Origin: Clostridia bacterium
Lineage (GTDB): Bacteria; Bacillota; Clostridia; UMGS1883
DNA: 64,000 nucleotides
Direction of reading: 5' to 3'
Assembly (NCBI GenBank): GCA_045615705.1
Contig: JAZLFH010000012.1
Coordinates: 4,417-68,416 of the forward strand
Below are positions 4,503 to 60,544 of the stretch, in pieces (positions within the stretch are counted from its first letter, which is position 1; the number at the start of each line of letters is the position of its first letter). A program made the translations under genes and the position numbers. The notes below the pieces were generated by a model. It was not told where the DNA came from. It saw only the letters and a list, made by a program, of their open reading frames with translations, and ran no database searches.

Positions 4503-5687
4503 ATGAAAGAATTTGAATTAAAATACGGTTGTAACCCAAACCAAAAGCCTTCAAAAATTTTTATGCAAAATGGCAGTGACCTACCCATTGAAATCTTAAA
4601 CGGCAGACCGGGTTTTATAAACTTTTTGGATGCGTTTAATTCCTGGCAACTTGTAAAGGAATTAAAAGAGGCAACAGGACTTTGTGCGGTTACATCTTTT
4701 AAGCATGTAAGCCCCACATCGGCAGCGGTAGGATTACCGCTTTCGGATAAACTTAAAAGAGCCTGCTTCGTTGACGATATAAAAGACCTTGATAAATCAC
4801 CTCTTGCCTGTGCTTATGCAAGAGCGAGAGGAACCGACAGAATGTGCTCGTTCGGAGATTGGGTAGCACTTTCCGATACTTGTGATGAAATCACCGCAAG
4901 CATGATTAAAAGAGAGGTTTCGGACGGTGTCATTGCACCGGGATATACGGATAAGGCACTTGAAATCTTAAAAACAAAGAGAAACGGCAACTATAACATC
5001 GTAAAAATTGACGAAAATTATGTACCCGAAGAAATTGAGCATAAAGATGTTTTCGGAATTACATTTGAGCAGGGCAGAAACAATTTTAAGATAAACAAAG
5101 AACTTTTGGAAAATGTCGTTACAAAGAATAAGACTCTTCCCGAATCCGCAATAAGAGACCTTATTATTTCTCTTATAACACTTAAATACACACAGTCAAA
5201 TTCAGTTTGTTTTGCCTATGACGGACAAGCAATCGGTGTGGGTGCGGGACAACAGTCAAGAATTCACTGTACCCGATTAGCGGGAAGCAAGGCGGATACT
5301 TGGTTTTTGCGTCAGTGCGACAAGGTTTTAAACCTTCCGTTTAAAGAAGACATTAAAAGAGCGGACAGAGATAATGTAATTGACGGTTATATTAATAAAA
5401 ACGAGGAAGATGTATGTCAAGACGGCGTTTGGCAGAAGTTCTTTACTTCCCGTCCGGAACCTCTTACAGAGGAAGAAGCGAAAGCCTATCTTTCGACCAT
5501 TGACGGCGTTTCGCTCGGTTCTGACGCATTTTTCCCGTTTTCGGACAACATTGAAAGGGCTAAGAGAAGCGGTGTAAAATATGTCGCAGAACCCGGTGGC
5601 TCCATAAGAGACGATTTGGTAATTGAATGTGCTGATAAATACGGTATGGCAATGGCGTTTACGGGTATGCGTCTTTTCCATCATTAA
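4503..5687 (+). CDS. purH: AICAR formyltransferase (PurH C-terminal domain only, no MGS/IMPCH domain)
   Basis: LKYGCNPNQ is near the N-terminus. The canonical C-terminus reads SDAFFPFSDNIERAKRSGVKYVAEPGGSIRDD...FTGMRLFHH. Confidence 0.85.
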   Translation: MKEFELKYGCNPNQKPSKIFMQNGSDLPIEILNGRPGFINFLDAFNSWQLVKELKEATGLCAVTSFKHVSPTSAAVGLPLSDKLKRACFVDDIKDLDKSPLACAYARARGTDRMCSFGDWVALSDTCDEITASMIKREVSDGVIAPGYTDKALEILKTKRNGNYNIVKIDENYVPEEIEHKDVFGITFEQGRNNFKINKELLENVVTKNKTLPESAIRDLIISLITLKYTQSNSVCFAYDGQAIGVGAGQQSRIHCTRLAGSKADTWFLRQCDKVLNLPFKEDIKRADRDNVIDGYINKNEEDVCQDGVWQKFFTSRPEPLTEEEAKAYLSTIDGVSLGSDAFFPFSDNIERAKRSGVKYVAEPGGSIRDDLVIECADKYGMAMAFTGMRLFHH

Positions 5688-6974: not shown

Positions 6975-9900
6975 TTTACAGAGTATTTGCAGAAAAAAAG
7001 AAAGAACTTGCACACGAAGCAAAATCACTGCTTTTTGAGGCAAGAAATCTTTTGGGAATAAAAAGCCTTACCGATGTCAGAATTTTTAACAGATATGATG
7101 TAGAGGGCATATCAAAAGAACTTTTTGAAAAAGCAAAGAAAAATGTTTTCTCAGAACCTCAGCTTGACATCGTAACAGATTCTGTTGATATAAATGATGC
7201 ATATCTTTTTGCGGTTGAATATCTGCCCGGACAGTTTGACCAAAGGGCTGATTCCGCATCTCAATGCATACAGATTATGTCGTGTGCTGCTCGTCCCACA
7301 ATCCGCAGTGCAAAGGTATATGCACTTTACGGAAATCTTTGCGATAAAGAAATAGAAAAGATTAAAAAGTATGTTATAAATCCCGTTGAAGCAAGAGAAG
7401 CAGACCTGAAAATGCCTGATACCTTGGACATTAAATACAATGTTCCCAAAGAAGTTATGACACTTGACGGATTTATAAATCTTGACGATAACGGAATAGA
7501 CAATTTTTTAAAAGACTATTCTTTGGCAATGGATTCTAACGATTTAAAGTTTTGCAGGGACTATTTTAAAAGCGAAAACAGAAATCCCACAATTACGGAA
7601 ATCAGAATGATAGACACTTATTGGTCAGACCATTGCAGACACACGACATTTTTGACAGTTATAGACAGCGTTAAATTTGAAGACGAACTTTTACAAAATG
7701 CGTATAATGAGTATTTAAAGACAAGAGAAGAAGTCGGCGATAAAAAGAAAATTTGCCTGATGGACTTGGCAACCGTTGCGGTAAAATACTTAAAAAAAGA
7801 AGGAAAACTTCAAAAACTTGATGAAAGCGAAGAAATCAACGCCTGTACAGTTAAAATTGATGTAGAAGTTGACGGTAAAGAAGAAAAATGGCTTCTTTTA
7901 TTTAAAAATGAAACGCACAACCACCCGACAGAAATTGAGCCTTTCGGCGGTGCGGCAACCTGTATAGGCGGAGCAATTCGTGATCCCCTCTCCGGAAGAG
8001 CGTATGTATACGGTGCAATGCGTGTAACGGGAGCGGGAGACCCTTTAAAGCCTATTGACGAAACAATCGAAGGAAAACTCCCTCAGAGAAAAATCGTTAC
8101 AACTGCGGCATCGGGATATTCTTCGTACGGAAATCAGATAGGTATTGCAACGGGAATAGTAGATGAAATTTACCACAGCGGATATTGTGCCAAAAGAATG
8201 GAAATCGGTGCGGTTATTGCGGCGGCACCGTGCGAAAATGTAAGAAGGGAAGTTCCTTCTCCCGGAGATGTGGTTTTCTTGTTGGGCGGAGCGACAGGCA
8301 GAGACGGGTGCGGCGGAGCGACAGGCTCATCAAAATCGCACACATCAAAATCGCTTGAAACTTGCGGTGCGGAAGTACAAAAAGGAAACGCACCCGAAGA
8401 AAGAAAACTTCAAAGATTATTCAGAAACAAAACTGCTTGCCAAATGATAAAGCGGTGCAACGATTTTGGTGCCGGCGGTGTATCGGTAGCAATCGGCGAA
8501 CTTGCAGACGGTCTTGTGATTGACCTTGACAAAGTACCTAAAAAATACGAAGGTTTGGACGGAACGGAACTCGCAATTTCGGAGAGCCAAGAGCGTATGG
8601 CGGTAGTTGTTGAGGATAAAAACAAGGAAAAATTCTTGGAGTTGGCAAATAGCGAAAACTTGTCGGCGTGTATCGTTGCAAAGGTTACAAAAGAACCTCG
8701 CCTTGTTATGAATTGGAACGGCAAGAAAATTGTTGATATAAGCCGTGAGTTTTTAAATTCAAACGGAGCGGATAAGCATATAGATGCAGTGGCAGAAAAA
8801 CCGCTTCCGATAGAAAAGGAAGTAAACGGCGGATTTTTAAAGAATTACAGTGAATTAGCCGAGGATTTAAATATTTGCTCTAAAAGAGGGTTGAGTGAAA
8901 GATTTGATTCTACAATAGGTGCAGGAACTGTTCTTATGCCGTTTGGCGGAAAAAATCAATTAACGCCCATTCAAGCGATGGTGCAAAAAATTTCCGTTGA
9001 GAAAAAGCACACCGATACGGTATCTCTTATGTCATTCGGATTTAACCCGTTTATTTCGGAAAAAAGTCCGTACCACGGTGCATATCTGGCGGTTGTTGAG
9101 TCTGTGTGCAAACTGATTGCAACAGGTGCGGATTTTAAAGATGTTTATTTGACTTTCCAGGAATACTTTGAACATCTCGGCAAAAACGCCAAGAGTTGGG
9201 GCAAACCTCTTTCGGCACTTTTGGGTGCTTTTATGGCACAGAAGGAACTTCAAATAGCATCAATCGGCGGAAAAGACTCAATGAGCGGTTCGTTTGAGGA
9301 TTTACATGTACCGCCGACACTTGTTTCCTTTGCGGTAACCACATCAAAGACGGACAGAATTGTTTCTAACGAGTTTAAAAAGGCGAAAAATAAGGTTTAT
9401 CTTATAAAGCCGGAGTATAAAAACTCAATTCCAAAAACACAATCGCTTTTAAAAGTGTTTGAAAAGGTTTCCAAACTTTTAAAAGATAATAAGGCACTCT
9501 CCTGCTATACCCTCGGTATGGGCGGAATTGCGGAAGCCGTTATGAAGATGTGCTTCGGCAACGGATTCGGGTTTAAATTTAATGAAGAACTTGACGAAAA
9601 AACACTTTTCTCCTACCTTTACGGCGGGTTTGTTGTGGAAACTGACGGAAGCGAAGAGATAGGCACATATATCGGCGAAATAACGGAAAATAAAGAATTT
9701 GTAAAAGGAAACGAAAAAATTTCCTATGACGAACTTCTGGAAAAATACGAGGGCAAACTTGAAAGTGTATATTCTTCTAACATTAAAAATGCAGGGAAAG
9801 AGCCAAAGACTTATTCGTATTTTTCAAAAGAGAAAAAATCCGCCGTCATTAAATGTGCAAAGCCAAAAGTTTTGATTCCGGTATTTCCGGGTACGAACTG

Positions 9901-24963: not shown

Positions 24964-27140
24964 ACGAGAATGTAAATATTTTAAACAGTGAACAACAAAA
25001 AGCGGTTACGACAACGGACGGACCGCTTCTTGTTCTTGCAGGGGCAGGTTCGGGAAAAACAAAAGTTTTGACATACAGGATTGCATATCTTATAGAGAAT
25101 AAAAAAGCTATGCCTTATAACATCTTGGCAATAACATTTACAAACAAAGCGGCACAGGAAATGCGAGACAGGGTAGAAGCACTTGTCGGCGAAGATGTAA
25201 ATGATATGTGGGTAAGAACTTTCCACTCTGCATGTGTAAGAATTTTAAGAAAAGATATTGAAAAAATCGGATACGGAAACAATTTTAACATAATTGATGC
25301 CGATGACCAAAAGTCGCTTATAAAAAATGTAATAAAAGACTTAAATCTTGACGATAAAAAGTTTCCGCCAAAGGTTGTACTCGGAGAAATTTCAAGGGCA
25401 AAGGAAAAATTGGTTTCACCCGAAAATTTTGAAAACCATTTCGGAAACGATTACAGAATGAGTCTTGTGGCAAGGATTTACGGCGAGTATCAAAAAAGAC
25501 TTAATAAGGCAAACTGCCTTGATTTTGACGACTTAATACTCAAAACTGTTGAACTTTTTGAAAAAAATGAAGATGTGCTTTCGTTTTACCAAAAAAAGTT
25601 CAGATACATCTTGGTTGACGAGTATCAAGACACAAACCATGCACAGTACAGACTCATAAGCCTTCTTGCAAAAGCACACCGGAATCTTTGTGTAGTAGGT
25701 GATGATGACCAGAGCATTTATAAGTTTAGAGGAGCCGACATAAAAAACATTCTTGACTTTGAAAAAGAATTTCCCGAAGCGACTGTTATAAGGCTTGAAC
25801 AGAACTATCGTTCCACACAAAACATCCTTTCGGCGGCAAATGCAGTAATAAAAAACAACACCGAAAGAAAGGGCAAAAACCTTTGGAGCGATAAGGGGAG
25901 CGGAGAAAAAATTACAGATTTTAAGACCGCTACCGACCGTGATGAAGCATATATGATTTCATCAAAAGCAAAAAGCCTTTTTGGTTGCGGTCGCAATTAT
26001 AAAGATATGGCGGTTTTATACCGTACAAACGCACAGTCAAGAGTGCTTGAAGAAGTGTTTATGCGTTCTTCGATTCCGTATAGGGTTCTGTCGGGACTTC
26101 GATTCTATGAAAGAATGGAAGTAAAAGACATTATCTCATATCTCAAACTTATTAAAAATCCCGATGATAATATTGCACTGATGCGTGTAATAAATGTTCC
26201 GTCAAGGAAAGTCGGGAAAGCAACATTAGATATGATTGAATCTATCGCAAACCGAGAAAACACGAGTATGTTTACCGCAATAAAAGACCACCTTGATGAA
26301 ATGAAAGACGGTGTGGTAAAGTTTTATGAAATTATTTCGAGTTTGCTTGAAGATGTAAAAACCTTAACCGTTGACGAGATAGTTCAAAACACGATTGAAA
26401 AGACGCTTTATGAGGATTATTTAAAATCAAACTACGAAAACTTTGAAGACAGAAAAGAAAACATCAGTCAGCTTGTTTCGGGTGCGGCGGATTATATGAA
26501 CGCATCACCCGATCCGTCATTTTCGGATTACATGGATAACTTGGCACTTATAAGCGATATAGATAACTATGATGAAACTGCGGACGCAATGAGTTTGATG
26601 ACCATTCACACCGCTAAGGGGTTGGAATTTCCGGTTGTGTTTTTGTGCGGAATGGACGAGGGACTGTTTCCCTCTGTGGCATCAATTATGGATGAATCGG
26701 AAGTTGAGGAAGAAAGACGACTTTGCTATGTAGGAATTACGAGAGCAAAGGAAGAATTGTATCTTTCGGGAGCAAAGAGCCGTATGATGTACGGGAAAAC
26801 CACTCCGTATAAGCCGTCAAGATTTATGGGCGAGATACCGAGCGAACTTATAACTACCGTTGAGAGCGAATCTTATATGACTTCCGCTCAGCCTTACAGT
26901 GAGATTTATTCTCCGAAAACACCTTTGTACAATACTTCATTTAAGATGCCTAAAACGGAATCTCCGAAGGGCGACATTTCGTTTAAGGTCGGAGATAGAG
27001 TTAAGCACATAAAATTCGGAGAAGGAATTATTATAAACGCAACACCCGTTGGCAGTGATATGCACTACGAAATCGCATTTGAAAGCGTTGGGACAAAAAA
27101 TCTTTTGGGACTTTACGCAAAACTTGAGAGAGTGGACTGA
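24960..27140 (+). CDS. pcrA: ATP-dependent DNA helicase PcrA/UvrD family
   Basis: Helicase motifs AGAGSGKT, DEYQDTN, QNYRST and TIHTAKGLEF are present. Confidence 0.9.
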   Translation: MNENVNILNSEQQKAVTTTDGPLLVLAGAGSGKTKVLTYRIAYLIENKKAMPYNILAITFTNKAAQEMRDRVEALVGEDVNDMWVRTFHSACVRILRKDIEKIGYGNNFNIIDADDQKSLIKNVIKDLNLDDKKFPPKVVLGEISRAKEKLVSPENFENHFGNDYRMSLVARIYGEYQKRLNKANCLDFDDLILKTVELFEKNEDVLSFYQKKFRYILVDEYQDTNHAQYRLISLLAKAHRNLCVVGDDDQSIYKFRGADIKNILDFEKEFPEATVIRLEQNYRSTQNILSAANAVIKNNTERKGKNLWSDKGSGEKITDFKTATDRDEAYMISSKAKSLFGCGRNYKDMAVLYRTNAQSRVLEEVFMRSSIPYRVLSGLRFYERMEVKDIISYLKLIKNPDDNIALMRVINVPSRKVGKATLDMIESIANRENTSMFTAIKDHLDEMKDGVVKFYEIISSLLEDVKTLTVDEIVQNTIEKTLYEDYLKSNYENFEDRKENISQLVSGAADYMNASPDPSFSDYMDNLALISDIDNYDETADAMSLMTIHTAKGLEFPVVFLCGMDEGLFPSVASIMDESEVEEERRLCYVGITRAKEELYLSGAKSRMMYGKTTPYKPSRFMGEIPSELITTVESESYMTSAQPYSEIYSPKTPLYNTSFKMPKTESPKGDISFKVGDRVKHIKFGEGIIINATPVGSDMHYEIAFESVGTKNLLGLYAKLERVD

Positions 27141-27144
27141 TAGT

Positions 27145-27876
27145 ATGTACGGTAATTTTGCATATTTATATGATCGTCTTATGTCGGATACCGACTATGA
27201 TTTGTGGTGCGATTTTTACCTTAGGGCATTTAAAAAATATAATACAGATGCAAAATTAGGACTTGATATGGGTTGCGGAACGGGAAATATCACGATGCGT
27301 TTAAAGGATAAAGGCATTGATATGATAGGACTTGACATATCAAGCGAGATGCTTTCGGTAGCAAGAAATAAAGACAGTAAAATTTTGTACCTTAATGCTT
27401 CCATGACCGATTTTGAACTTTACGGAACGGTAGATTTTGTAATATCGGCTCTTGATTGCATAAACTATATTACGGATAAGAGAGAGTTAAAAAAGTGCTT
27501 CAAACTCGTAAATAACTACCTAAATCCAAAGGGACTTTTCATTTTTGATGTAAATACTCCGTATAAAATAGAAAATATTTTAGGCTCAAATACATTTGCG
27601 GAAGATAAAAACGGAATTTTCTACTCCTGGCAGAGTTATTTTGATAAAAAGAGTAAAATATGCGAGTATGATTTGACATTTTTTGAAAAGCAGGACGAAA
27701 ATTTCATAAGAACAGACGAAAAACAGTTTCAGCGGGCATACAGTATGGAAGAAATAGAAAAACTCATAATTGATTCCGGGTTGGAATATTTGGGCGTGTA
27801 TAATTCTTGTTTTAAAAAAGCGGGAAAAACCGATGAAAGATGGTTTTTCATAGCACGGGAAAGAGGCAAAAAATGA
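27145..27876 (+). CDS. class I SAM-dependent methyltransferase
   Basis: Motif I reads LDMGCGTGN. I chose ATG 27145, just after the pcrA stop, over the track start at 27049 inside pcrA. Confidence 0.75.
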   Translation: MYGNFAYLYDRLMSDTDYDLWCDFYLRAFKKYNTDAKLGLDMGCGTGNITMRLKDKGIDMIGLDISSEMLSVARNKDSKILYLNASMTDFELYGTVDFVISALDCINYITDKRELKKCFKLVNNYLNPKGLFIFDVNTPYKIENILGSNTFAEDKNGIFYSWQSYFDKKSKICEYDLTFFEKQDENFIRTDEKQFQRAYSMEEIEKLIIDSGLEYLGVYNSCFKKAGKTDERWFFIARERGKK

Positions 27877-32860: not shown

Positions 32861-33057
32861 TACTTCATGCGGTTTTCGTAGTCTTCAATCATTTTCTTAA
32901 CCATCTGTCCGCCGACAGAACCGTTTTCTCTGCTGGTCTTGTCGCCGTTATATCCGTGGTTTAAAGTAACGCCGACTTCGTTTGCAGCTTCCATCTTGAA
33001 CTTATCAAGTGCTGCTCTTGCCTCCGGAACTACATTTCTGTTTTTTCTTGTTGCCAT
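32860..33057 (-). CDS. alpha/beta-type small acid-soluble spore protein
   Basis: 65 aa, reading ...ALDKFKMEAANEVGV...GSVGGQMVKKMIE. Confidence 0.9.
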   Translation of the reverse strand: MATRKNRNVVPEARAALDKFKMEAANEVGVTLNHGYNGDKTSRENGSVGGQMVKKMIEDYENRMK

Positions 33058-33120
33058 AATATTTTTACACTCCTTTTATTTGGTTTCGTTCCTATTTTGA
33101 GGCAAAAATTAAAACTTTAT

Positions 33121-33720
33121 TCATTCAATTTTTTCCAATTTATTTACCGACACCTCGTAGGCAGTTCTGTCTTCAATTTCAAAATCCGAAATTTTCTTTT
33201 GATATTTTCTTGATTGCAGTCTTCCGGATATAAAAATGTTGTCGCCGACATCAAAAAGCGAAGATATGCGTGCGTTTTGTCCCCACGCAATGGTCGGAAT
33301 ATAGTCGGAACGGTTAAAAGAGCGGTTAACGGCTACTATCATATCCGTTATTTCTCTGCCGAGAGGTGTTTGGCGGTAGGTTGGAGGTTTGCACAAAAAA
33401 GCGTTAAGTTCAATCTCGTTTTTATAGTCGTCAAACGGGGAAAGTTTTATGCTGTGGCAAAAAACAGTGAGTACAAGTTTTGTTTTTGAACCGATAAACC
33501 TGTTATAAGAGCGAAGTTCACCTATAACGCTTATTCTGTCGCCGGTATTTAACTCATTTGGGATTAACTTTTCGCTCAGGGTAAATGGTATAAAGTCGAA
33601 AGTGTCGCTGAGGCGTGCTACATTCAAAGTACCGTTGTAAAAATGCTCTCCTTTAACACTGTGGCTGTAATTAAGACCTTCTGAAAGATCTCCGCAAAGG
33701 CGGATTGAATTATTATCCAA
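33121..33720 (-). CDS. tandem OB-fold SSB-like protein
   Basis: It has two SSB-like halves, ending ...GELRSYNR... and ...AVNRSFNRSDYIPTIAWGQNA...GRLQSRKY. There is no acidic tail. TTG 33720 with an AAAGGAG RBS is preferred. ATG 33759 is the alternative and would overlap the upstream gene. Confidence 0.5.
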   Translation of the reverse strand: MDNNSIRLCGDLSEGLNYSHSVKGEHFYNGTLNVARLSDTFDFIPFTLSEKLIPNELNTGDRISVIGELRSYNRFIGSKTKLVLTVFCHSIKLSPFDDYKNEIELNAFLCKPPTYRQTPLGREITDMIVAVNRSFNRSDYIPTIAWGQNARISSLFDVGDNIFISGRLQSRKYQKKISDFEIEDRTAYEVSVNKLEKIE

Positions 33721-33733
33721 TATGTACACTCCT

Positions 33734-34489
33734 TTAATTTTTAAATTGTCTGCCCTCATGGTTTATAGAGTAATTGTCTTTGTAAATTAAATCCGAAACA
33801 GTGGTAAAACTGTACCCTTCGTTTGAAAGCGAATCTAAAATATCGCCGATACTTTTTGCCGTATTTTCAGTTCCGTTGTGGAAAAGAATGATTGAACCGG
33901 ATTTTACTCTGTCAAGAATTCGTTTTTTCATTTGTTCTTTTGTGTAGCCACGCCAGTCAAGACTGTCTGTATCCCATTGAATTAATGTGTGGTTTGATTC
34001 TTTAACGGCAATGACACTGTTATTGTCATAGTCGCCGGACGGTGCACGGACAAGGGTTGTGCGTACACCCAAAATACTTTCTGTTACATCATCGCATTTA
34101 TTAATATCAGATATGATTTCTTCCTTGCTTAGTTTTGAATACAAGGTGTGATTATAACTGTGGTTTGCTATTTCGTGTCCTTGTGAGTAAATCTTTTTTA
34201 GGGCATCGGGGTATTTTTCCGCCCAAGTACCTACAATAAAAAATGTACACTTAGCGTTTCTTTCATTGAGTTCGTCTAAAATTATATCAATATCGTCTGC
34301 GTTCCAAGCACAGTTAAAGGTTACGGCAATTTTTTTATCATTTCGTTCAACACTGTAAACAGGGATTTCCTTTTCTGTTGCCGATGCCTCTTTTATGCCG
34401 TGATACGAAAGAGGTACAATCCCTGCGATTAAGACCGTAATTAAAACGATAACAATGATGGCATATTTATCAAAAACAAAGATTTTCAA
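33734..34489 (-). CDS. polysaccharide deacetylase family sporulation protein (PdaA/PdaB-like)
   Basis: An N-terminal TM segment precedes a NodB domain (TFNCAW..., TFFIVG, NHSYNH). Confidence 0.8.
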   Translation of the reverse strand: MKIFVFDKYAIIVIVLITVLIAGIVPLSYHGIKEASATEKEIPVYSVERNDKKIAVTFNCAWNADDIDIILDELNERNAKCTFFIVGTWAEKYPDALKKIYSQGHEIANHSYNHTLYSKLSKEEIISDINKCDDVTESILGVRTTLVRAPSGDYDNNSVIAVKESNHTLIQWDTDSLDWRGYTKEQMKKRILDRVKSGSIILFHNGTENTAKSIGDILDSLSNEGYSFTTVSDLIYKDNYSINHEGRQFKN

Positions 34490-35199
34490 TGTTTATCGCC
34501 TCCGACACATTCATAATATTTTATTATCCCATCGCATATAGATGCCGAAACCCTTTTTTGGTAGTCGTCCGTGTTTAAAAGTGCTTCTTCATCGGGATTG
34601 GATAAAAATCCGCACTCTGCAATTACGGTTGGTATTTTGGAATTTTTTAAAAGATATATGTTTCTCCCCGGGGCTTTTACGCTTCGGGTTTGGTTTTTTT
34701 CATCAATTTTTCTAAACTCTTCTTGAATTAATTCCGCCAAAAGAACCGATTGCAAAAAGTTTTCCGAATATATAACTTCACCGCCACGATATTTTGACTG
34801 CATAAAATTGTTCATGTGAATGCTTACCGCAATGTCGGCGTTCGACTCATTAATTATGTCTACACGCTTTTTTAGGTCGTCTTTTTTCTTTTCACGGATT
34901 GACTCCTTATCGGAGATTCCGTATTCGTCCTCACGAGTCATAATGACGGTAAAACCGCGGTTTACAAGTTCTTCTTTAAGATTGTTTGTAACTTTTAGAT
35001 TAATTTCACTTTCAATCGTTCCGCTTTTACCGACCGCACCGCCGTCAGGCGAGCCGTGTCCTGCGTCTAAGACTATAACCTTGCTGTTTTGGTGAACAAA
35101 GTTAGAAGTGGGATTACTCTTTTTTGGAATTGCTATTGCAACGGCAAAAATAACGGCAATTGCTAAAACTATTGACCTTTTCTTGACAACGAGAAACAT
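34486..35199 (-). CDS. cwlD: N-acetylmuramoyl-L-alanine amidase, CwlD-like
   Basis: It has a signal anchor and an Amidase_3 domain (VLDAGHGSPDGGA...SIHMN...ECGFLSN). Its size and spore-gene context fit CwlD. Confidence 0.75.
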   Translation of the reverse strand: MFLVVKKRSIVLAIAVIFAVAIAIPKKSNPTSNFVHQNSKVIVLDAGHGSPDGGAVGKSGTIESEINLKVTNNLKEELVNRGFTVIMTREDEYGISDKESIREKKKDDLKKRVDIINESNADIAVSIHMNNFMQSKYRGGEVIYSENFLQSVLLAELIQEEFRKIDEKNQTRSVKAPGRNIYLLKNSKIPTVIAECGFLSNPDEEALLNTDDYQKRVSASICDGIIKYYECVGGDKH

Positions 35200-35278
35200 A
35201 AAATCACCTGTGATACAAGTTTATTATTGATTTCGTTGTGATATTCTATAAAATTTTGTATAAAATAAAATAAAAGGC

Positions 35279-35307
35279 TTGCATAATCAAAAAAGATGTG
35301 TTATAAT
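35279..35307 (+). promoter_or_regulatory. sigma-A promoter of tRNA-Cys
   Basis: TTGCAT (35279-84), a 17-nt spacer, then TATAAT (35302-07). Confidence 0.5.
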
Positions 35308-35320
35308 CCCAAATGTTAAC

Positions 35321-35394
35321 GGCACCATAGCCAAGTGGTAAGGCAGAGGCCTGCAAAGCCTTTATCCCCAGTTCAAGTCTGGGTGGTGCCTCCA
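35321..35394 (+). tRNA. tRNA-Cys (GCA)
   Basis: The cloverleaf was read by eye. The acceptor is GGCACCA/TGGTGCC, the anticodon loop is CTGCAAA, the T-loop is GTTCAAGTC, and CCA is encoded. Confidence 0.95.
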
Positions 35395-35395
35395 G

Positions 35396-35427
35396 AAAAA
35401 ACGACAAGTGGAAACTTGTCGTTTTTT
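35396..35427 (+). terminator. intrinsic terminator after tRNA-Cys
   Basis: The sequence is AAAAAACGACAAGT-GGAA-ACTTGTCGTTTTTT. Confidence 0.6.
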
Positions 35428-35640
35428 CAACTAAATCCGTCCTTACGGACGGGTGAAATCGCCTGCGGCGATGAAATCTGCTTCGCAGATGAAATCCGAC
35501 TTCGTCGTGTTAAAGAGGACGGATTTAATTTCACCAAAGCCGAAGGCTTTGATTTCATCCAAAACAAGTTTTGGATTTCACCGTGACGGAGTCACGATTT
35601 CATTAATAATAACAGATATCTATATTGTCTACGATTTTCA
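35423..35640 (+). repeat. modular word/mini-hairpin array, left inverted copy (trails tRNA-Cys)
   Basis: The words GTGAAATC and GATGAAATC(x2), then ATTTCACC, GATTTCATC, GATTTCAC and GATTTCAT, alternate with short hairpins. It is the reverse complement of 36278-36448. Confidence 0.75.
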
Positions 35641-35677
35641 AAAAAAAAGCACTTTGCGAAACGCAAAGTGCTTTTTT
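35641..35677. terminator. bidirectional terminator downstream of the small zinc-ribbon gene
   Basis: The sequence is AAAAAAAAGCACTTTGCG-AAA-CGCAAAGTGCTTTTTT. Confidence 0.6.
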
Positions 35678-35703
35678 AAATTGTGGATAAAAAACATCAA
35701 AAT

Positions 35704-35991
35704 TTATGCTCGGAAATTATGTCCGCATTCGTGACAATAGTAAATTCTTCTTCTGTTTGAAAACCATCTTCTGGATTGCCAAACATGTCCTTTTCCTGAT
35801 GTATTCTTTAAAATAGCCATCCACCAGTCATAACAAATGAAAATCATTAAACCAATACACCATTTTATCATTATCCATATAAAATAATAGATTCCGAACA
35901 AAATAGTCCATAAACAACCATGTTTATTCATTTCATTTGACAGCTGAACCTTTGTACTACCGCATTTTGGACATTTTACATTGATTGCCAA
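35704..35991 (-). CDS. small membrane protein with a split zinc ribbon (CPKC ... CHEC)
   Basis: 95 aa with a TTG start 9 nt after AAAGGAG. The N-terminal CPKCGS and C-terminal CHECGH flank two Trp/Ile-rich TM segments. I recognise no family. Confidence 0.45.
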   Translation of the reverse strand: MAINVKCPKCGSTKVQLSNEMNKHGCLWTILFGIYYFIWIMIKWCIGLMIFICYDWWMAILKNTSGKGHVWQSRRWFSNRRRIYYCHECGHNFRA

Positions 35992-36016
35992 TTTTCTTTT
36001 CTCCTTTGTATTAATT

Positions 36017-36045
36017 AAAAAATGCGTCTACCGAAGCAGACGCAC
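36017..36045 (-). terminator. terminator-like hairpin in the 5' leader of the small gene (possible attenuator)
   Basis: On the minus strand it reads GTGCGTCTGC-TTCG-GTAGACGCAT followed by TTTTT. It ends about 20 nt before the RBS. Confidence 0.45.
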
Positions 36046-36277
36046 AAAAAACGCAAACTCCGATAGTCGCCAAACTAATCATACACAAAATGAGCTATTA
36101 TACATACCTACATTGTGGAGCTTGCTGTTTTTAACAACATTCAACAATATAAGTATGCAAATATGAAGCCCATTTTATTAAAAAATAAAATAACTCAATT
36201 TTGCGTAAATATTTAATTAGTTTGGCATAATTATTGTACCTTCCTTCTTCCTTCTTACATATTACTTTTTACTTTCC

Positions 36278-36448
36278 AAAAATCGTGTATGATATAGATA
36301 TCCGATTATTTTTATGAAATCGTGGCTTTGCCACGGTGAAATTAAATCCGTCCTCTTTAACCCGACGAAGTCGGATTTCATCTGCGATAGCAGATTTCAT
36401 CGCCGCAGGCAATTTCACCCGTCCGATAGGACGGATTTAGTTGAAAAA
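36278..36448 (-). repeat. modular word/mini-hairpin array, right inverted copy (trails the displaced tRNA-Arg 3' fragment)
   Basis: Its reverse complement aligns with 35423-35640, apart from a 47-nt module indel and loop or compensatory changes. Confidence 0.75.
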
Positions 36449-36476
36449 AGCACCGACAAAGTCGATGCTTTTTTCA

Positions 36477-36494
36477 TGGCGTGCCATGAGGGAT
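36477..36494 (-). other. duplicated 3'-terminal 18 nt of tRNA-Arg (att-like direct repeat)
   Basis: TGGCGTGCCATGAGGGAT is identical to 36675-36692, which is the 3' end of the intact tRNA-Arg. Confidence 0.75.
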
Positions 36495-36674
36495 ACAGAT
36501 GCTACGCATCTTGCGTGCTTGCCCACCCAAATGCTTCGCATTTCGGTACCGGGCTTTGCACCAACTTCGCTAAAAACGGTTATCAACCGTTTTTTTAACG
36601 CTCGTTGCCCTCTCAGGGTTTAAGTCCCAATATAGAAACATTAAAGCAGAGAACATAAAATGTTCTCTGCTTTT
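36495..36674. mobile_element. 180-bp insert between tRNA-Arg and its displaced 3' fragment (remnant or miniature integrative element?)
   Basis: It is bounded by the 18-nt direct repeat. It contains its own terminator next to the tRNA and further mini-hairpins (AGATGC-TAC-GCATCT, AAATGC-TTC-GCATTT). It has no ORF. Confidence 0.35.
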
Positions 36675-36751
36675 TGGCGTGCCATGAGGGATTCGAACCC
36701 CCGACCTTATGGTCCGTAGCCATACGCTCTATCCAGCTGAGCTAATGGCAC
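36675..36751 (-). tRNA. tRNA-Arg (ACG)
   Basis: The minus strand reads GTGCCATTAGCTCAGCTGGATAGAGC...CTACGGA...GGTTCGAATCCCTCATGGCACGCCA. Confidence 0.95.
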
Positions 36752-36832
36752 AAATTTTCTACGCAAAAAGTATTGTACCACAAGAAGGACTAAAAAGCAA
36801 ACAAAATTTTGATTTTTTTTAGAGTTTTTTAA

Positions 36833-37717
36833 TTACAGTAAGACTTCACTAAAAACTCTTCTGAAATTATTATAAGCAATGTCTTTAACAACATCTTCCG
36901 GGTAGTTTCTTTTTAGAAGTTCATCGAAGATTTTGTTAAGTTCCGCCACACCAAAAATTCCATCGGGGAGTGCATCAACTCCGTCAAAGTCAGTTCCTAT
37001 GCCTATATTCTTTTCGCCGCCCAATGAAAGAAAATGCTCGATGTGGTCAATTACCGTATCAATATTACTGTTATCACCCAAAAAGTCGGCACAAAGATTA
37101 ATTCCGACTACACCACGGTTTAAAATAATTGCCTTAAATTCCTCATCTGTAAGATTTCTCTTGTATTTTGGGTTAACTGTTCGTGAATTTGAGTGAGATG
37201 CGACTACGGGATTTTTGGAATACTCCAAAACATCAAAAAAACTCTTATCGCCTATGTGTGATACATCAATTACTACACCCAAAAAATATGCCCTGTCAAT
37301 AATTTTGCGTCCGAAGTCGGTAAGCCCATGGTCAACATCGTTTGCAATACTTGATGCTGCTTCATTTCGGTTATTCCATGTAAGAGTAAGAAGCCTCATG
37401 CCTCTTTTATAAAAATAGTCAAACGCACTCATACTGCCTCTGAAAGCATCTGCTCCTTCGAGAGCCAAAACCGCACAAAACGGATTATTCAAATCATCAC
37501 GGCAAGTAACTTTTGTAAGATTATGCCTTCTTATCACTCTGTCGAAGCGTGGAAGTATTCTTTTGGTATAAGAAAATGCGGGGTAGTATTCGGGGCAAAT
37601 TGCGAAAATTTGAGTATAGAACGGGTACAAAAACATATCGGAAATTTCAAGTTGAGGATTTTCTCTAACTGACAGCGTATCGCAATGTGCATCAAAAACC
37701 CCATATTTAAAAGGCAT
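36833..37717 (-). CDS. membrane dipeptidase (peptidase M19 family)
   Basis: FDAHCDT, TWNNRN and HSNSR motifs are present. I chose ATG 37717, after a GAGGTGG RBS, over the track start at 37822 inside yraN. Confidence 0.85.
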   Translation of the reverse strand: MPFKYGVFDAHCDTLSVRENPQLEISDMFLYPFYTQIFAICPEYYPAFSYTKRILPRFDRVIRRHNLTKVTCRDDLNNPFCAVLALEGADAFRGSMSAFDYFYKRGMRLLTLTWNNRNEAASSIANDVDHGLTDFGRKIIDRAYFLGVVIDVSHIGDKSFFDVLEYSKNPVVASHSNSRTVNPKYKRNLTDEEFKAIILNRGVVGINLCADFLGDNSNIDTVIDHIEHFLSLGGEKNIGIGTDFDGVDALPDGIFGVAELNKIFDELLKRNYPEDVVKDIAYNNFRRVFSEVLL

Positions 37718-38072
37718 CTTTAACCACCTCAACTTCGGGTTTAATAAGTTTTTTATCATTGTAGTCGGAAACAACAGAAACAAAATCAAACCGAGTAAAA
37801 GAATCCGAAAGACCTCGCTCACTAAGATAAATCAAAGCCGTTTTTTTAATTCTTTCTATCTTTTTATAATTAATAGATTCACTCGGTGAAACAACAGCAT
37901 TTCTTTTTTTCAGTCGAACCTCTACAAAGCAAATGTATTCTTTATCCTGTGCTATAATGTCAATTTCCCCAAAACGAGAGTGATAATTTCTGTCTAAAAT
38001 CTTATACTTATTCTTTTTTAAAACTTTTACGGCAAGTTCTTCGCCCAAAACACCAATATCTTTTCTTTCCAT
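37707..38072 (-). CDS. yraN: YraN-family (UPF0102) endonuclease-like protein
   Basis: GEIDIIA...FVEVR... is present. It has the conserved position after rnhB. Confidence 0.8.
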   Translation of the reverse strand: MERKDIGVLGEELAVKVLKKNKYKILDRNYHSRFGEIDIIAQDKEYICFVEVRLKKRNAVVSPSESINYKKIERIKKTALIYLSERGLSDSFTRFDFVSVVSDYNDKKLIKPEVEVVKDAF

Positions 38073-38074
38073 AA

Positions 38075-38698
38075 TTACACAAACTTTTTTACAAAGGTTT
38101 TTCTGTGAAATTCACACGCACCGTGAATTTTAAGTGCTTCGATATGAACTTTCGTACCATATCCCTTGTGCTTTATAAATGAATATTCGGGATAAATTTT
38201 ATCAAGTTCCGCCATATATCTGTCCCTCGAAACCTTGGCAAGAATAGAAGCGGCGGCAATCGAGGCACTCTTTGAGTCGCCCTTTACTACGCATTGGTGA
38301 TTCAATTTGCAAAACTTAATATCATCTCCGTCAACAAGGACAAACTCGGGAGTCGTTTTCAAAGCAGTTATAGCCCTGTTCATAGCCATATATGTAGCGT
38401 TTCTTATATTGTACTCGTCAATTTCTTCAACACTTGCGGAAGCGATAGCATAAGAAATTGCGTTTTCACAAATTACATCAAAAAGAATTTCTCTCTTTTT
38501 TTCGCTGACTTTTTTTGAGTCGTTAAGACCTTCGGGCGAGAAAAAAGGCGGCAATATAACTGCCGCTGCAAAAACATCTCCCGCAAGAGGACCTCTCCCT
38601 GCCTCGTCAACTCCCGCAATCGTTTTGACTCCTTTTGAGAAGGCATCTCTTTCAATATCCCACATCATATTAAGACGCATTTCTTCTTTTTCGTTCAT
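38075..38698 (-). CDS. rnhB: ribonuclease HII
   Basis: GVDEAGRGPLAGDV and DSKK motifs are present. Confidence 0.95.
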   Translation of the reverse strand: MNEKEEMRLNMMWDIERDAFSKGVKTIAGVDEAGRGPLAGDVFAAAVILPPFFSPEGLNDSKKVSEKKREILFDVICENAISYAIASASVEEIDEYNIRNATYMAMNRAITALKTTPEFVLVDGDDIKFCKLNHQCVVKGDSKSASIAAASILAKVSRDRYMAELDKIYPEYSFIKHKGYGTKVHIEALKIHGACEFHRKTFVKKFV

Positions 38699-38707
38699 AA
38701 AAATCTC

Positions 38708-39529
38708 CTAATCAAGTGTTATTCTGCCAAGTTTGGAAGCCCTAAACTCATCAAGTAAAACATTTGATGCACGGCGAATGTCCGCTTCACCGTTTGAAAC
38801 AAAAAATGAGCGATTTTTTGCAATGTCAAAGAGAATATCATACCCATTTTTATCAATATCCGAAAGTGAATATCTTTCTTTGAGAGCATCGCCGTAGTTA
38901 TCCCTTAAAAAATCGCAAAGAGATGACGCCAATTCTTCCACATTCATTATATCGTCTTTTATTGCACCGGTAAAGGCAAGTTTTAACCCGACTGACTTAT
39001 CTTCAAATTTCGGCCACAAAATTCCGGGGGTGTCAAGCATTTCTATTCCGCTTTTTAAAGTAACCCATTGCTTTCCTCTGGTAACACCGGGACGGTCGCC
39101 GACTTTTGTCGCACCCTTTTTGGAAAGTTTGTTTATAAGAGAAGATTTCCCTACATTCGGTATACCGCAAACCATAATTCTGATAGGCTTATTTACGATA
39201 CCTCTTTTTTTATCACGCTCAATCTTTTCTTTTAAAAGTTCTTTTATCTTTGGTGCGATTTTGTCAACTCCCATACCGCTTTTTGAACTGATGAGAATTG
39301 CATTTAGTTTATCCTTCCACAAAAGGTTGGACTTTTCGTCCGCAATATCGCTCTTGTTTATAACGGTAACGATGGGCTTTCCCTTTGTAAGAGAGGGCAA
39401 ATCGGGGTTTCGGCTTGAAACAGGACAACGGGCGTCCAAAATTTCGAGGACACAATCTACGCTTTTTATGTCTTCTTCAATCATTCGCCTCGTTTTTGTC
39501 ATATGCCCCGGAAACCACTGTATATCCAT
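38708..39529 (-). CDS. rbgA: ribosome biogenesis GTPase A (YlqF/RbgA)
   Basis: It is a circularly permuted GTPase, with NKSD before GIPNVGKSS and DTPG. Confidence 0.9.
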   Translation of the reverse strand: MDIQWFPGHMTKTRRMIEEDIKSVDCVLEILDARCPVSSRNPDLPSLTKGKPIVTVINKSDIADEKSNLLWKDKLNAILISSKSGMGVDKIAPKIKELLKEKIERDKKRGIVNKPIRIMVCGIPNVGKSSLINKLSKKGATKVGDRPGVTRGKQWVTLKSGIEMLDTPGILWPKFEDKSVGLKLAFTGAIKDDIMNVEELASSLCDFLRDNYGDALKERYSLSDIDKNGYDILFDIAKNRSFFVSNGEADIRRASNVLLDEFRASKLGRITLD

Positions 39530-57381: not shown

Positions 57382-57456
57382 ATGCCTGTGGCGTATTTCA
57401 TGTTGTTAAGCATTTCACTGCGGAGCAATTCCGCAAATCCGACAGAATTTATTTCG
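57382..57456 (+). repeat. word/mini-hairpin array copy on the left flank of the R-M island
   Basis: The sequence is ATGCCTGTGGCGTATTTCA..GCATTTCAC..AAATCCGA..ATTTATTTCG. It parallels 60483-60541 in the same orientation. Confidence 0.6.
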
Positions 57457-57488
57457 TTTTTTCTGAAAAAGGCGATCAATTTCAATAC

Positions 57489-57738: not shown

Positions 57739-59274
57739 ATGAAAGCAAATTATAACAAGTTATTAAAAATGCTTATTGACCGGAAAATGACCAAAACCGA
57801 CCTTCGTGAGCAGGCTAAAATCAGTTCAAGCACTCTTGCAAAAATCGGAAAAGAAGAAATGGTAAGTTCCGATGTTCTGACAAAAATTTGTAATGTGCTT
57901 TCTTGTGATATCGGTGATATCGTTGAACTTGTCAGAGATGAAAATGAAGAATACGAAGTAATCAATTCTCCGGGTAAATTAAAAGTTGTTTCGTTGTTTT
58001 CCGGTGCCGGTGGTATGGATTTAGGATTTATTAATGCCGGTTTTGAAATTATTTGGGCAAACGACTTTTTTCAAGAAGCCGTTGCTTCATATCGCAAAAA
58101 TATTGGTAAACATATGATACACGGAGATATCACAAAAATTAAAAACGAAGATATCCCCAACGGTGCGGATGTAATAATCGGGGGTTTTCCTTGCCAAGGT
58201 TTTTCGGTTGCCAACACCAGGCGTTCAATGGAAGACAAGCGTAATTTCTTATATAAAGAAATGCTTAGAATAATTAAAGATAAAAAGCCAAAATTCTTTG
58301 TAGCTGAAAATGTAAAAGGTATTTTGTCAATTGAAAACGGTAAAGTTTTTGAGATGATAAAGTCGGATTTTGAAAATTTAGGTTATGATGTTGAACCAAG
58401 GGTTTTGAATGCAGCTGAATACGGTGTGGCTCAAGCAAGAGAACGAGTTGTAATTATCGGAAACAGATTGGGAATAGAGAATCCTTTCCCCGCAAAAACC
58501 CATTATCTTCCCGGATTTGAAGACAAAAAATTGTTTCCTGCATTTACGACGGAACAGGCTATTGGTTTCTTGTCTAATATAAAAATATCTAACAAGCCTA
58601 AAACTATCAAAATTGAAGATTTGAAAAAGCACATAAAAGCAACGGGTATTAAAGACGAAGATGGATTTTTTGAAATACTTGGAGTAGATAAAAATTGCAA
58701 TGAAATCTCAATTACAAATCATATTGCTTCCGAAAATGTAGCAGATACATTTTGGGGAAGAGAGTATGAAGTAAATCAGCATGACATTTGTGATTACTTG
58801 AGATTTTGGAGAGATAAAGCCGGTTGGACAACTAAAAAGGTTGATGAGCATTTTGGATATTCTTACACAGCCGGACATTGGTTTAGAAAAGATAACAATT
58901 CCGGAAGTATACCGAGTCCGGAAGATTGGTGGGAACTCAAAAAAATCTTTGGATTTGATGATAAATACGATAAAGCCGTTACCACTCTTGTAGAAAAAGA
59001 AATAAAATTTGAACAGTCTTTGAGAATTACCAACTGGGATAGGCCGAGCGATACAATTACGGCAACAAGCCCGGAAATTCATGTTAATAAAAAAAGAAGA
59101 TTAAGTGCAAGGGAATGTGCAATTCTTCAGTCTTTCCCTGTTACATATGAATTTACGGGAAGCCTTAATAAAATGTATACACAAATCGGCAATGCTGTGC
59201 CGGTTAAATTGGCAACTAAAATAGCAACAGGAATAAAAGATGCAATAGAAAAAAATAATGAGAGTGAAAAATAA
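57739..59274 (+). CDS. DNA (cytosine-5)-methyltransferase with an N-terminal XRE-type HTH domain
   Basis: The HTH reads LREQAKISSSTLAKIGKEEMVSSDVLTKICNVLSCDIGDI. The m5C motifs are I FSGAGG, IV GFPCQGFS, VI ENV, VIII QARERV, IX RRLSARECAILQSFP and X GNAVPV. The variable region between VIII and IX is long. Confidence 0.9.
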   Translation: MKANYNKLLKMLIDRKMTKTDLREQAKISSSTLAKIGKEEMVSSDVLTKICNVLSCDIGDIVELVRDENEEYEVINSPGKLKVVSLFSGAGGMDLGFINAGFEIIWANDFFQEAVASYRKNIGKHMIHGDITKIKNEDIPNGADVIIGGFPCQGFSVANTRRSMEDKRNFLYKEMLRIIKDKKPKFFVAENVKGILSIENGKVFEMIKSDFENLGYDVEPRVLNAAEYGVAQARERVVIIGNRLGIENPFPAKTHYLPGFEDKKLFPAFTTEQAIGFLSNIKISNKPKTIKIEDLKKHIKATGIKDEDGFFEILGVDKNCNEISITNHIASENVADTFWGREYEVNQHDICDYLRFWRDKAGWTTKKVDEHFGYSYTAGHWFRKDNNSGSIPSPEDWWELKKIFGFDDKYDKAVTTLVEKEIKFEQSLRITNWDRPSDTITATSPEIHVNKKRRLSARECAILQSFPVTYEFTGSLNKMYTQIGNAVPVKLATKIATGIKDAIEKNNESEK

Positions 59275-60205: not shown

Positions 60206-60304
60206 TGATGTGATGTGTTCCATTCACTCACCGTAGGTGAACATCATGTCCGAAGGACACATCACACACGAAGTGTGCATCATGTTCCGTGAGGAACACA
60301 TCGT
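60206..60304 (-). repeat. variant word/mini-hairpin array (CATCA/GATG words)
   Basis: The hairpins are TCACC-GTA-GGTGA, TGTCC-GAA-GGACA, CACAC-GAA-GTGTG and TGTTCC-GTGA-GGAACA. They are separated by ACATCA(T/C) words. The outer pairing is GATGTGTTCC/GGAACACATC. Confidence 0.6.
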
Positions 60305-60418
60305 TCAAAAAAGTCCCTTTTGTTTTATCACATAGTTTTAAAATATCAACGAAAAAGACATTGATAAATTTTTAAGTTTAGATTCAGCCATGTTGTTATC
60401 ACCTCAAATATTTTATTT

Positions 60419-60541
60419 AGTGAAATATCGGCTTTGCGGATGTGAAATGAAATAAGTCCTGTTACGCGCGCAGGCATTTCACACGCCGTAGGCGTATTTC
60501 ACGCACGAAGTGCATTTCACAAATCCGAAGGATTTATTTCG
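60419..60541 (-). repeat. word/mini-hairpin array trailing tRNA-Tyr and its terminator
   Basis: The minus strand has GTGAAATG, GTGAAATA and GTGAAATG, followed by CATTTCAC and ATTTCAC. The hairpins are AATCC-TTC-GGATT, GCAC-TTC-GTGC and ACGCC-TAC-GGCGT. Confidence 0.7.
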
Positions 60542-60544
60542 CTT

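Follow-up and report, generated by a model that had tools for sequence, protein, structure and literature searches.

In enterobacteria (REP/BIME) and in Streptococcus pneumoniae (BOX), hairpin repeats are found outside genes in many copies, at the ends of genes and in both direct and inverted orientation. As transcripts or folded structures they encode nothing, and the number of modules varies in BOX elements (boxB). In type III toxin-antitoxin systems, ToxI consists of near-identical repeats of 34 to 36 nt, which are processed by an endoribonuclease toxin, ToxN. Gut-1 was described from human-gut metagenome sequence, in no sequenced organism, and listed among probable non-coding RNAs without a known function (Weinberg et al. 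2010, PMC2864571). On the protein side, a PF05635/S23p open reading frame is carried by the intervening sequences of 23S rRNA (PMC4990558), and Avd belongs to diversity-generating retroelements (DGRs) (PMC10053308).

Here, Gut-1, an orphan since 2010, is placed in genomes as one arm of a dyad-symmetric modular array behind tRNA genes. New as well are the evolution of this array, by gain and loss of whole modules with the stems kept paired, and its tie to a specific clade of the Avd/IVS family. Two features of unknown function would thereby become one testable protein-nucleic acid pair.

Two-armed Gut-1 arrays in the window

The window is a stretch of 64,000 nt from contig JAZLFH010000012.1 of a Clostridia bacterium (assembly GCA_045615705.1), whose genome comprises 1.36 Mb in 75 contigs and is 82% complete. 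It contains a left copy of a two-armed array of ~180 nt (35428-35603, +) and a right copy of the same array type with a shortened right arm (36443-36314, -). The left arms match Gut-1 (RF01706) end to end, with 67.5 bits (35428-35500, +) and 60.9 bits (36370-36443, -), the gathering score of the covariance model being 50 bits. The right arm stays below this threshold and matches on the opposite strand only, with 33.6 bits in the left copy (35547-35624, -) and 20.2 bits in the right copy; each copy is therefore a Gut-1 array joined to an inverted, diverged Gut-1-like array. Judged by its sequence, the right arm is an inverted relative of Gut-1 with a longer period, which is not described by Rfam.

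All full copies in the window's genome share one polarity. The elements run in the order A6-hairpin-T6 terminator, CAAC(T/G)AAAT, hairpin 1, three word-plus-hairpin modules, center, right arm, and a tail of ~35 nt. In the left arm, the word is GTGAAAT or ATGAAAT and the period is 18 to 20 nt, while in the right arm the hairpins, usually three but at times one or two, stand between ATTTCA(C/T) words with a period of 22 to 24 nt; sometimes this arm is absent or down to a single hairpin with two words. Among 261 modules there are 133 distinct stems, and the conserved part is the word alone, which measures 7 to 8 nt. Pairing between left and right words was rejected as the cause of their match, as the G/A pattern of the left words is not mirrored by the C/T pattern of the right words within elements.

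A stretch of at least 9 nt (median, 11) located 82 to 93 nt downstream, just before the first right-arm word, is perfectly complementary to part of the element's first ~18 nt. This complement is found in 23 of 25 distinct heads, compared with 0.3% of shuffles, and the paired sequences vary by family (TAAATCCGTCCT, GAAATAAATCC, AAATTTGCCT, GAAATACGCC, TTATATTTGTTCC). Since complementarity is kept with family-specific sequences, a covarying long-range helix, predicted at 9 to 15 bp, can form in place of hairpin 1 and so close the left arm.

The left cassette begins at the first base past the CCA of tRNA-Cys(GCA) (35321-35394, +; ARAGORN, with 66.6 bits for the Rfam tRNA model). It opens with an A6-hairpin-T6 terminator, gaaaaaaCGACAAGTggaaACTTGTCGtttttt (35395-35427, +), whose stem is identical in copies C5, C8, and C19; as this stem occurs behind other tRNAs of the genome, the terminator probably belongs to the cassette. 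The left arm (35428-35527, +) consists of hairpin 1 (35437-35452), GTGAAAT (35453-35459), hairpin 2 (35460-35470), ATGAAAT (35471-35477), hairpin 3 (35478-35488), ATGAAAT (35489-35495), hairpin 4 (35496-35507), and the center (35508-35527), within which AGGACGGATTTA (35516-35527) can pair base for base with TAAATCCGTCCT (35432-35443). The right, inverted arm (35528-35603, +), delimited from the sequence and its word clusters, contains the region singled out by the earlier note (35536-35596) and reads ATTTCAC, R1 (35535-35551), ATTTCAT, R2 (35559-35574), ATTTCAC, R3 (35582-35596), and ATTTCAT (35597-35603). The tail, taataataacaGATATCtatattgtctaCGAtTTtCA (35604-35640, +), is kept behind solo arrays; in copy C5, this sequence sits instead behind the stop codon of a four-helix-bundle gene.

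The right cassette lies on the minus strand and docks behind an 18-nt copy of the 3' end of tRNA-Arg(ACG) (36477-36494). This copy closes a stretch (36477-36751) that holds the tRNA itself (36675-36751; ARAGORN), a terminator, and a class 2 repeat of ~150 nt. There follow the terminator of the cassette, with stem GCATCGAC... (36444-36476), which differs from the stem of the left cassette; the left arm (36343-36443), 95% identical to that of the left copy; a right arm (36314-36342) that comprises only ATTTCAC, R3 (36335-36321), and ATTTCAT; and the tail (36278-36313), the last two assigned from sequence and alignment. The sole gene between the two copies (35704-35991, -) encodes a protein of 95 aa whose two ends each bear a CxxC and which contains two hydrophobic segments; only weak zinc-ribbon matches were obtained for it. 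This gene is downstream of the right cassette head in the same orientation and may be cargo of the right cassette.

A third composite array, of family B (60418-60544, -; Rfam, 75.5 bits over 60471-60544), is found behind tRNA-Thr/Tyr and a terminator, and its right arm is likewise down to a single hairpin. Behind it lies the remnant of a four-helix-bundle gene (60391-60338, -), which ends after 17 codons, and past the remnant are half a terminator and the left arm of another word family (GTGATG/CATCAC, 60307-60210). At 60210-60391, one cassette head thus appears to have displaced most of the gene of another cassette. A degenerate Gut-1-like array (57390-57459, -; 36.7 bits) adjoins a C5 cytosine methyltransferase gene (57739-59274), with no tRNA ahead of it.

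The two copies differ by two whole modules

The likeness of the two copies is beyond chance, resting on curated covariance model matches above threshold and on two inverted repeats, 35422-35482 with 36389-36449 (61 nt, 95% complementary) and 35483-35535 with 36335-36387 (53 nt, 98% complementary). Alignment by MAFFT (35395-35660, +, versus 36250-36480, -) leaves a single gap of 47 columns, corresponding to 35536-35582 of the left copy, which reads AAAGCCGAAGGCTTTGATTTCATCCAAAACAAGTTTTGGATTTCACC. Directly before this segment is ATTTCACC (35528-35535), found again at its end (35575-35582), and because of this 8-nt direct repeat the gap can be slid over 8 nt. The 47 nt are made up of R1, ATTTCAT (35552-35558), R2, and ATTTCAC (35575-35581), that is, two whole word-plus-hairpin modules missing from the right copy, and the alignment thus agrees with the earlier note, which had described the extra segment as two such modules flanked by the word. 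The junction in the right copy is one ATTTCACC at 36342-36335. As three right-arm hairpins are present in eight other family A copies, the difference is most simply read as a loss from the right copy, not a gain in the left.

The hairpin that follows, R3, is cGTGAC-GGA-GTCACg in the left copy (35582-35596) and cGTGGC-AAA-GCCACg in the right copy (36335-36321, -), so that A>G is paired with T>C and the loop is also changed; the double compensatory change reported previously is present in both sequences. The accompanying claim that all other differences are confined to loops stands for TTAC/TATC and TTC/TATC but not for two changes at stem bases, namely, a C>T where hairpin 2 begins, giving T.G in the right copy, and a T>G at the end of hairpin 4, by which the right copy gains one pair. 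The loop of R2 also varies, reading CCAAAAC-AA-GTTTTGG in the left copy (35559-35574) and CCAAAAC-TT-GTTTTGG in other family A copies (G000 C5, C8, C58, and C66); because the R2 stem is a perfect palindrome, this difference equals an inversion of the whole hairpin.

Changes in length by whole modules bounded by the word, as had been proposed from these two copies, recur in other arrays. The third window copy (60418-60544, -) lacks the same two inner right-arm modules, excised between ATTTCAC words. In genome G018, copy L290 is 55 nt, or two modules, shorter than L022, word to word, and single-module differences of 18 and 20 nt (L019 versus L310 and C18 versus C19) each begin with GTGAAAT. The same last hairpin has been left by three independent two-module deletions. 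These indels were judged on curated module strings; automated pairwise microhomology scoring, which set gaps arbitrarily between dissimilar neighbor modules and overlooked the 47-nt case, was discarded as too noisy.

Stems vary and stay paired

For a test of the segments between words, arrays were defined by words alone, giving 166 distinct inter-word segments. At least four outer Watson-Crick pairs are formed in 65% of these, compared with 0.5% of shuffles. Within clusters of homologous modules, a Watson-Crick pair is restored in 44 of 52 two-sided changes (expected, one-third; P = 3e-14, a value that, like the other P values given here, overstates independence because the sequences counted are distinct but related). 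Across 16 family B right arms, 97.8% of cells are paired, compared with 82.2% in shuffles (0 of 500) and 34 to 48% in slid registers, and 11 of 17 pairs have changed on both sides. The hairpins of the Gut-1 array show covariation support. The compensatory double changes and the excess of pairing over shuffles bear out the view, put forward from the two window copies, that the hairpin structure is maintained. As compensation in a DNA palindrome can also come about by template-switch correction, maintained stems do not by themselves prove an RNA.

Genomic context and spread

The window's genome has 18 Gut-1 matches, often in head-to-head pairs, and 12 word clusters. Terminator and array are directly behind seven tRNA loci (Asn, Cys, Tyr, Arg, Lys, Leu, and Trp) in the orientation of the tRNA, and the eighth tRNA-linked copy is the right copy, behind the 18-nt duplicate of the tRNA-Arg 3' end. 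In the enlarged set, ~35 of 82 distinct elements are within 130 nt of a tRNA 3' end. Gut-1 is found in 24 of 41 genomes of the same family and order, with 2 to 41 matches each, many of them at contig ends; the rest have none, and among the 41 Gut-1 is absent from one entire genus of 7 genomes.

One genome per species was scanned with a three-word pattern, and 56 of the 120 loci obtained are true hairpin arrays. Nearly all of these are from metagenome-assembled genomes that carry Clostridia, Eubacteriales, Acutalibacteraceae, Oscillospiraceae, or Ruminococcaceae labels, and they come from human and ruminant guts. A metagenome scan with the family A center gave one real element among 120 matches. 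When the three-word pattern was used for a viral scan, 8 of 120 contigs were real, all with the same tRNA-terminator-array layout; there is therefore no sign of a phage origin.

The two cassettes of the window stand behind convergent tRNA-Cys and tRNA-Arg genes, so their layout is inverted without forming one unit bounded by inverted repeats. Their arrays are 95% identical to each other, compared with 70 to 86% to other family A copies, while their terminators are unrelated. This combination indicates gene conversion between neighbors, by which the arrays of the two copies have probably been homogenized. No integrase gene was found within or near the left and right arrays, the open reading frames at 33000-39000 being spore and housekeeping genes plus the 95-aa zinc-ribbon membrane protein. 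A direct repeat of a tRNA 3' end, of 18 nt, bounds the class 2 insert before the right copy, and one of 11 nt is found behind the array in L019; none was found behind the left or right array of the window.

Two other repeat classes also occur behind tRNA genes. Class 2, of ~150 nt with core GATTGATAATCGTTTTTAGCGAG, is present at 36495-36640 (-) of the window and stands behind tRNA-Pro, Arg, Leu, and Arg; other locations are G000 C5:~1-150, C10:~4900-5300, C18:~27000-27300, C29:~8590-8760, and C36:~4740-4900. It is sometimes in tandem, and an Rfam search gave no match. The last 18 nt of every class 2 copy duplicate the 3' end of its upstream tRNA (position 59 to CCA); this duplicate derives from the target and is not carried by the element. 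In class 3, a long palindrome, TACTTATTCACT.. / ..AGTAATAGTGAAT, comes after the terminator AAAATCCTCGTTC..GAACGGGGATTTTT. This class is found at 36200-36270 of the window, where a piece of it abuts the tail of the right copy, and in G000 C1, C5, C53, C58, C59, and C71, behind tRNA-Pro, Gly, Leu, Glu, Ser, and Phe.

Arrays are linked to four-helix-bundle genes

Both intact PF05635 genes of the window's genome are directly behind an array, and the 17-codon remnant is behind the third window copy. Of 41 genomes, 22 have both Gut-1 and PF05635, 2 have Gut-1 only, 3 have PF05635 only, and 14 have neither (Fisher P = 2e-6). Our survey of PF05635 covered 73 loci, with 64 full-length genes that have enough upstream sequence; at least three copies of a clade-specific word are found within 330 nt upstream in 44 of the 64. 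By protein clade, the words are GTGAAAT, GCTAAAT, GTGRTAT, TCGATAT, GCGATAT, GTGAAGT, ATGAATT, ATGAAGY, ATGATGT, and others. The 12 word types need 15 changes on the protein tree, where the minimum is 11 and the shuffled mean is 40.8 (0 of 200 as low); as agreement between word and clade is expected for any two linked parts, it indicates co-inheritance and is not proof of binding. No arrays were found at one PF05635 clade of 16 genes or at PF05635 genes sampled across the phylum.

The cassette protein matches TIGR02436 with 97 bits, and its closest solved relative is PDB 2RLD, with five chains on record. It has no match in PADLOC or known defense families. A promoter lies between the array and the PF05635 gene, and the right arm abuts or overlaps promoter-like sites. 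Because the tail found past the gene's stop codon in C5 is also present in solo arrays, these look like derivatives that have lost the gene. Within an element the stems diverge but the words do not, and the window's genome has two word families side by side; this suggests a trans-acting reader. No reverse transcriptase gene was found next to a four-helix-bundle gene, and the presence of reverse transcriptase tracks neither Gut-1 nor PF05635 (genome G006, with 41 matches, has none). A retroelement or DGR origin was rejected, as reverse transcriptase does not track the arrays.

Mismatches and loops point to the ATTTCAC strand

Predicted folding energy is equal on the two strands (-64.2 versus -63.5 kcal/mol) and was rejected as a guide to strand choice. 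On the GTGAAAT strand, inner stem positions have 14 A.C versus 4 G.T and 22 C.T versus 4 G.A, mostly tandem. The loops on this strand are complements of GNA in 56 modules and of GNRA in 13, GNA/GNRA itself being found in 2. When modules are compared with their cluster consensus, 23 G.T and 9 A.C fall on the ATTTCAC strand (P = 0.02). These counts therefore put wobble pairs, sheared G.A pairs, and C(GNA)G triloops all on the ATTTCAC strand, which is opposite the Rfam annotation for the left arm and the same strand as the tRNA for the right arm. C(GNA)G triloops are unusually stable DNA mini-hairpins. An opposing signal comes from the R at word position 1: on the GUGAAAU strand, and there alone, it places U.G or U-A at the base of every stem. 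It may be that the Rfam Gut-1 entry has the strand wrong, or even the type of molecule, in that the array would act as DNA rather than RNA.

A proposed cassette head read by its own protein

We consider it reasonably likely that the array is the non-coding head of a cassette whose words are read by the PF05635 protein on a folded single strand, be it DNA or RNA. Small cassettes of uncultured gut Clostridia would start directly past a tRNA CCA, or behind other terminators, and would comprise their own terminator, the left arm, the right arm, and then a promoter and PF05635 gene or, in solo form, a short tail. The left and right copies would be solo heads, each of a cassette of its own, one behind tRNA-Cys and the other behind the convergent tRNA-Arg gene, with their arrays homogenized with each other, probably by gene conversion. 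Afterward, the right copy would have lost R1 and R2 via recombination or replication slippage between two ATTTCACC words.

Stems that vary yet stay paired, next to a word that is constant within the element, point to two roles. The hairpins would act as structural spacers in the folded single strand, and the word would be the site that a reader acting in trans recognizes; this reader would most likely be the pentameric four-helix-bundle protein encoded by the cassette itself. We infer such binding, the DNA or RNA nature of the strand, and the mobility of the cassette from the patterns of sequence described above. No recombinase, transposase, or reverse transcriptase tracks the arrays, so mobility is proposed here without a mechanism. 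A bolder version, for which the chances are rather low, holds that the arrays are the cis sites of recombinase-less mobile cassettes, in which a pentameric Avd-like protein reads the clade-specific 7-nt word between C(GNA)G-loop DNA mini-hairpins and docks or maintains the cassettes at the 3' ends of stable RNAs. If this recombinase-less reading were true, it would by extension account for the intervening sequences of 23S rRNA that carry PF05635, which have long lacked an explanation.

Other explanations account for part of these observations. Quite unlikely, in our judgment, is that Gut-1 is a free-standing structured small RNA, as Rfam has it, transcribed in the GUGAAAU orientation, e.g., a protein sponge, with the right arm as an antisense or degenerate second copy. 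Such an RNA would fit the curated model matches, the stem covariation, a folding z-score of -5.3, and the U.G/U-A pairs that R at word position 1 allows at stem bases on the GUGAAAU strand only. However, the motif begins 0 to 2 nt past a strong terminator with no promoter-like site ahead, and a small RNA of this kind would not lead one to expect an inverted partner arm, 18 matches in one genome, or an uneven distribution of 0 to 41 matches among genomes. Its strand is also disfavored by loops that complement GNA/GNRA in 69 modules versus 2 and by the inner A.C:G.T ratio of 14:4 on the GUGAAAU strand, and the coupling to a downstream protein gene tells against it as well.

Ranking lower, and very unlikely, is that the words are double-stranded DNA sites, iteron- or operator-like and about two helical turns apart, that regulate the promoter of the four-helix-bundle gene or form a roadblock, with the palindromic spacers being incidental. 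The period of 18 to 24 bp, the same word in direct and then inverted orientation, the abutment or overlap of the right arm with promoter-like sites of the downstream gene, and the specificity of words to protein clades would all be expected of such sites. Yet incidental spacers would not hold 97.8% pairing across 133 distinct stems, nor would they favor C(GNA)G loops, and solo arrays distant from four-helix-bundle genes outnumber gene-linked arrays.

We give still less credence to the array as a fail-safe bidirectional transcription insulator or RNA stabilizer behind strongly transcribed tRNA genes, comparable to BIME/REP elements of E. coli and with no dedicated protein. Its constant position behind terminators, its dyad symmetry, and the T-rich word after each hairpin on the ATTTCAC strand are compatible with that role, and some modules pass a terminator-like scan; nonetheless, many word variants are not U-rich (ATACCAC, ATATCGC, AACTTCAC), and an insulator leaves unexplained why the word is uniform within an element and different between clades. 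Mobilization of a REP/BIME-type repeat by a RAYT (Y1 HUH transposase) is scarcely credible and largely refuted already: although the word-plus-hairpin unit is multi-copy and extragenic, and RAYT-like genes (245 to 330 aa) are found in 13 of 24 Gut-1-positive versus 1 of 17 Gut-1-negative genomes, a co-occurrence that is probably phylogenetic, there is no Y1_Tnp (PF01797) match in the window's genome, G012 (25 matches), or G034, RAYT-like genes in relatives have GGGGACG hairpins of their own as flanks, not Gut-1 arrays, and the hairpin sequence, unlike that of REPs, is not conserved among copies.

The RAYT-like Y1 genes L367 to L385 (e.g., G015:C10:1-2300 and G021:C94:1-2600) have inverted repeats of their own, which contain GGGGAC(G/A), on both sides and appear to be a separate REP-like system of the relatives. 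A fragment of the GGGGAC(G/A) repeat is found beside an array in G000 C19. For the Gut-1 arrays themselves, a cassette head read by the PF05635 protein on a folded single strand remains the reading that we prefer.

Comparison with known systems

The left arm has the same three or four short hairpins joined by GUGAAAU as Gut-1 in its published form. The inverted second arm, the long-range helix, the word variants, the multi-copy state, the docking at tRNAs and terminators, and the PF05635 link are not described in the Gut-1 paper (PMC2864571). Nor were the two arms, the tRNA docking, the module-wise length change, or a protein partner with clade-specific words found in the literature searched.

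Gut-1 arrays resemble REP/BIME and BOX elements in being multi-copy extragenic hairpin modules, with no relation in sequence. They differ in that the hairpins are free to vary while the word between hairpins is conserved, in that there is no RAYT, and in their strict position and orientation behind tRNA terminators. As in type III toxin-antitoxin systems, a short tandem non-coding array is directly upstream of the gene for a small, possibly binding protein. In contrast to ToxI/ToxN, the Gut-1 units differ in their stems, there is a second, inverted arm, the array is separated from the gene by a promoter, and the gene product is a four-helix bundle. A type III system was rejected on the grounds that the units differ in stems and that the protein belongs to TIGR02436/PF05635, with no PADLOC match.

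Full cassettes encode the same protein family as the PF05635/S23p reading frame of 23S rRNA intervening sequences and the Avd of DGRs. Unlike in DGRs, no reverse transcriptase or TR/VR accompanies the cassette. Compared with the intervening sequences, the Gut-1 cassette is not inside rRNA, and the two window copies appear to have lost the gene; both, however, are small selfish inserts that are bounded by inverted repeats and lie beside or inside a stable-RNA gene.
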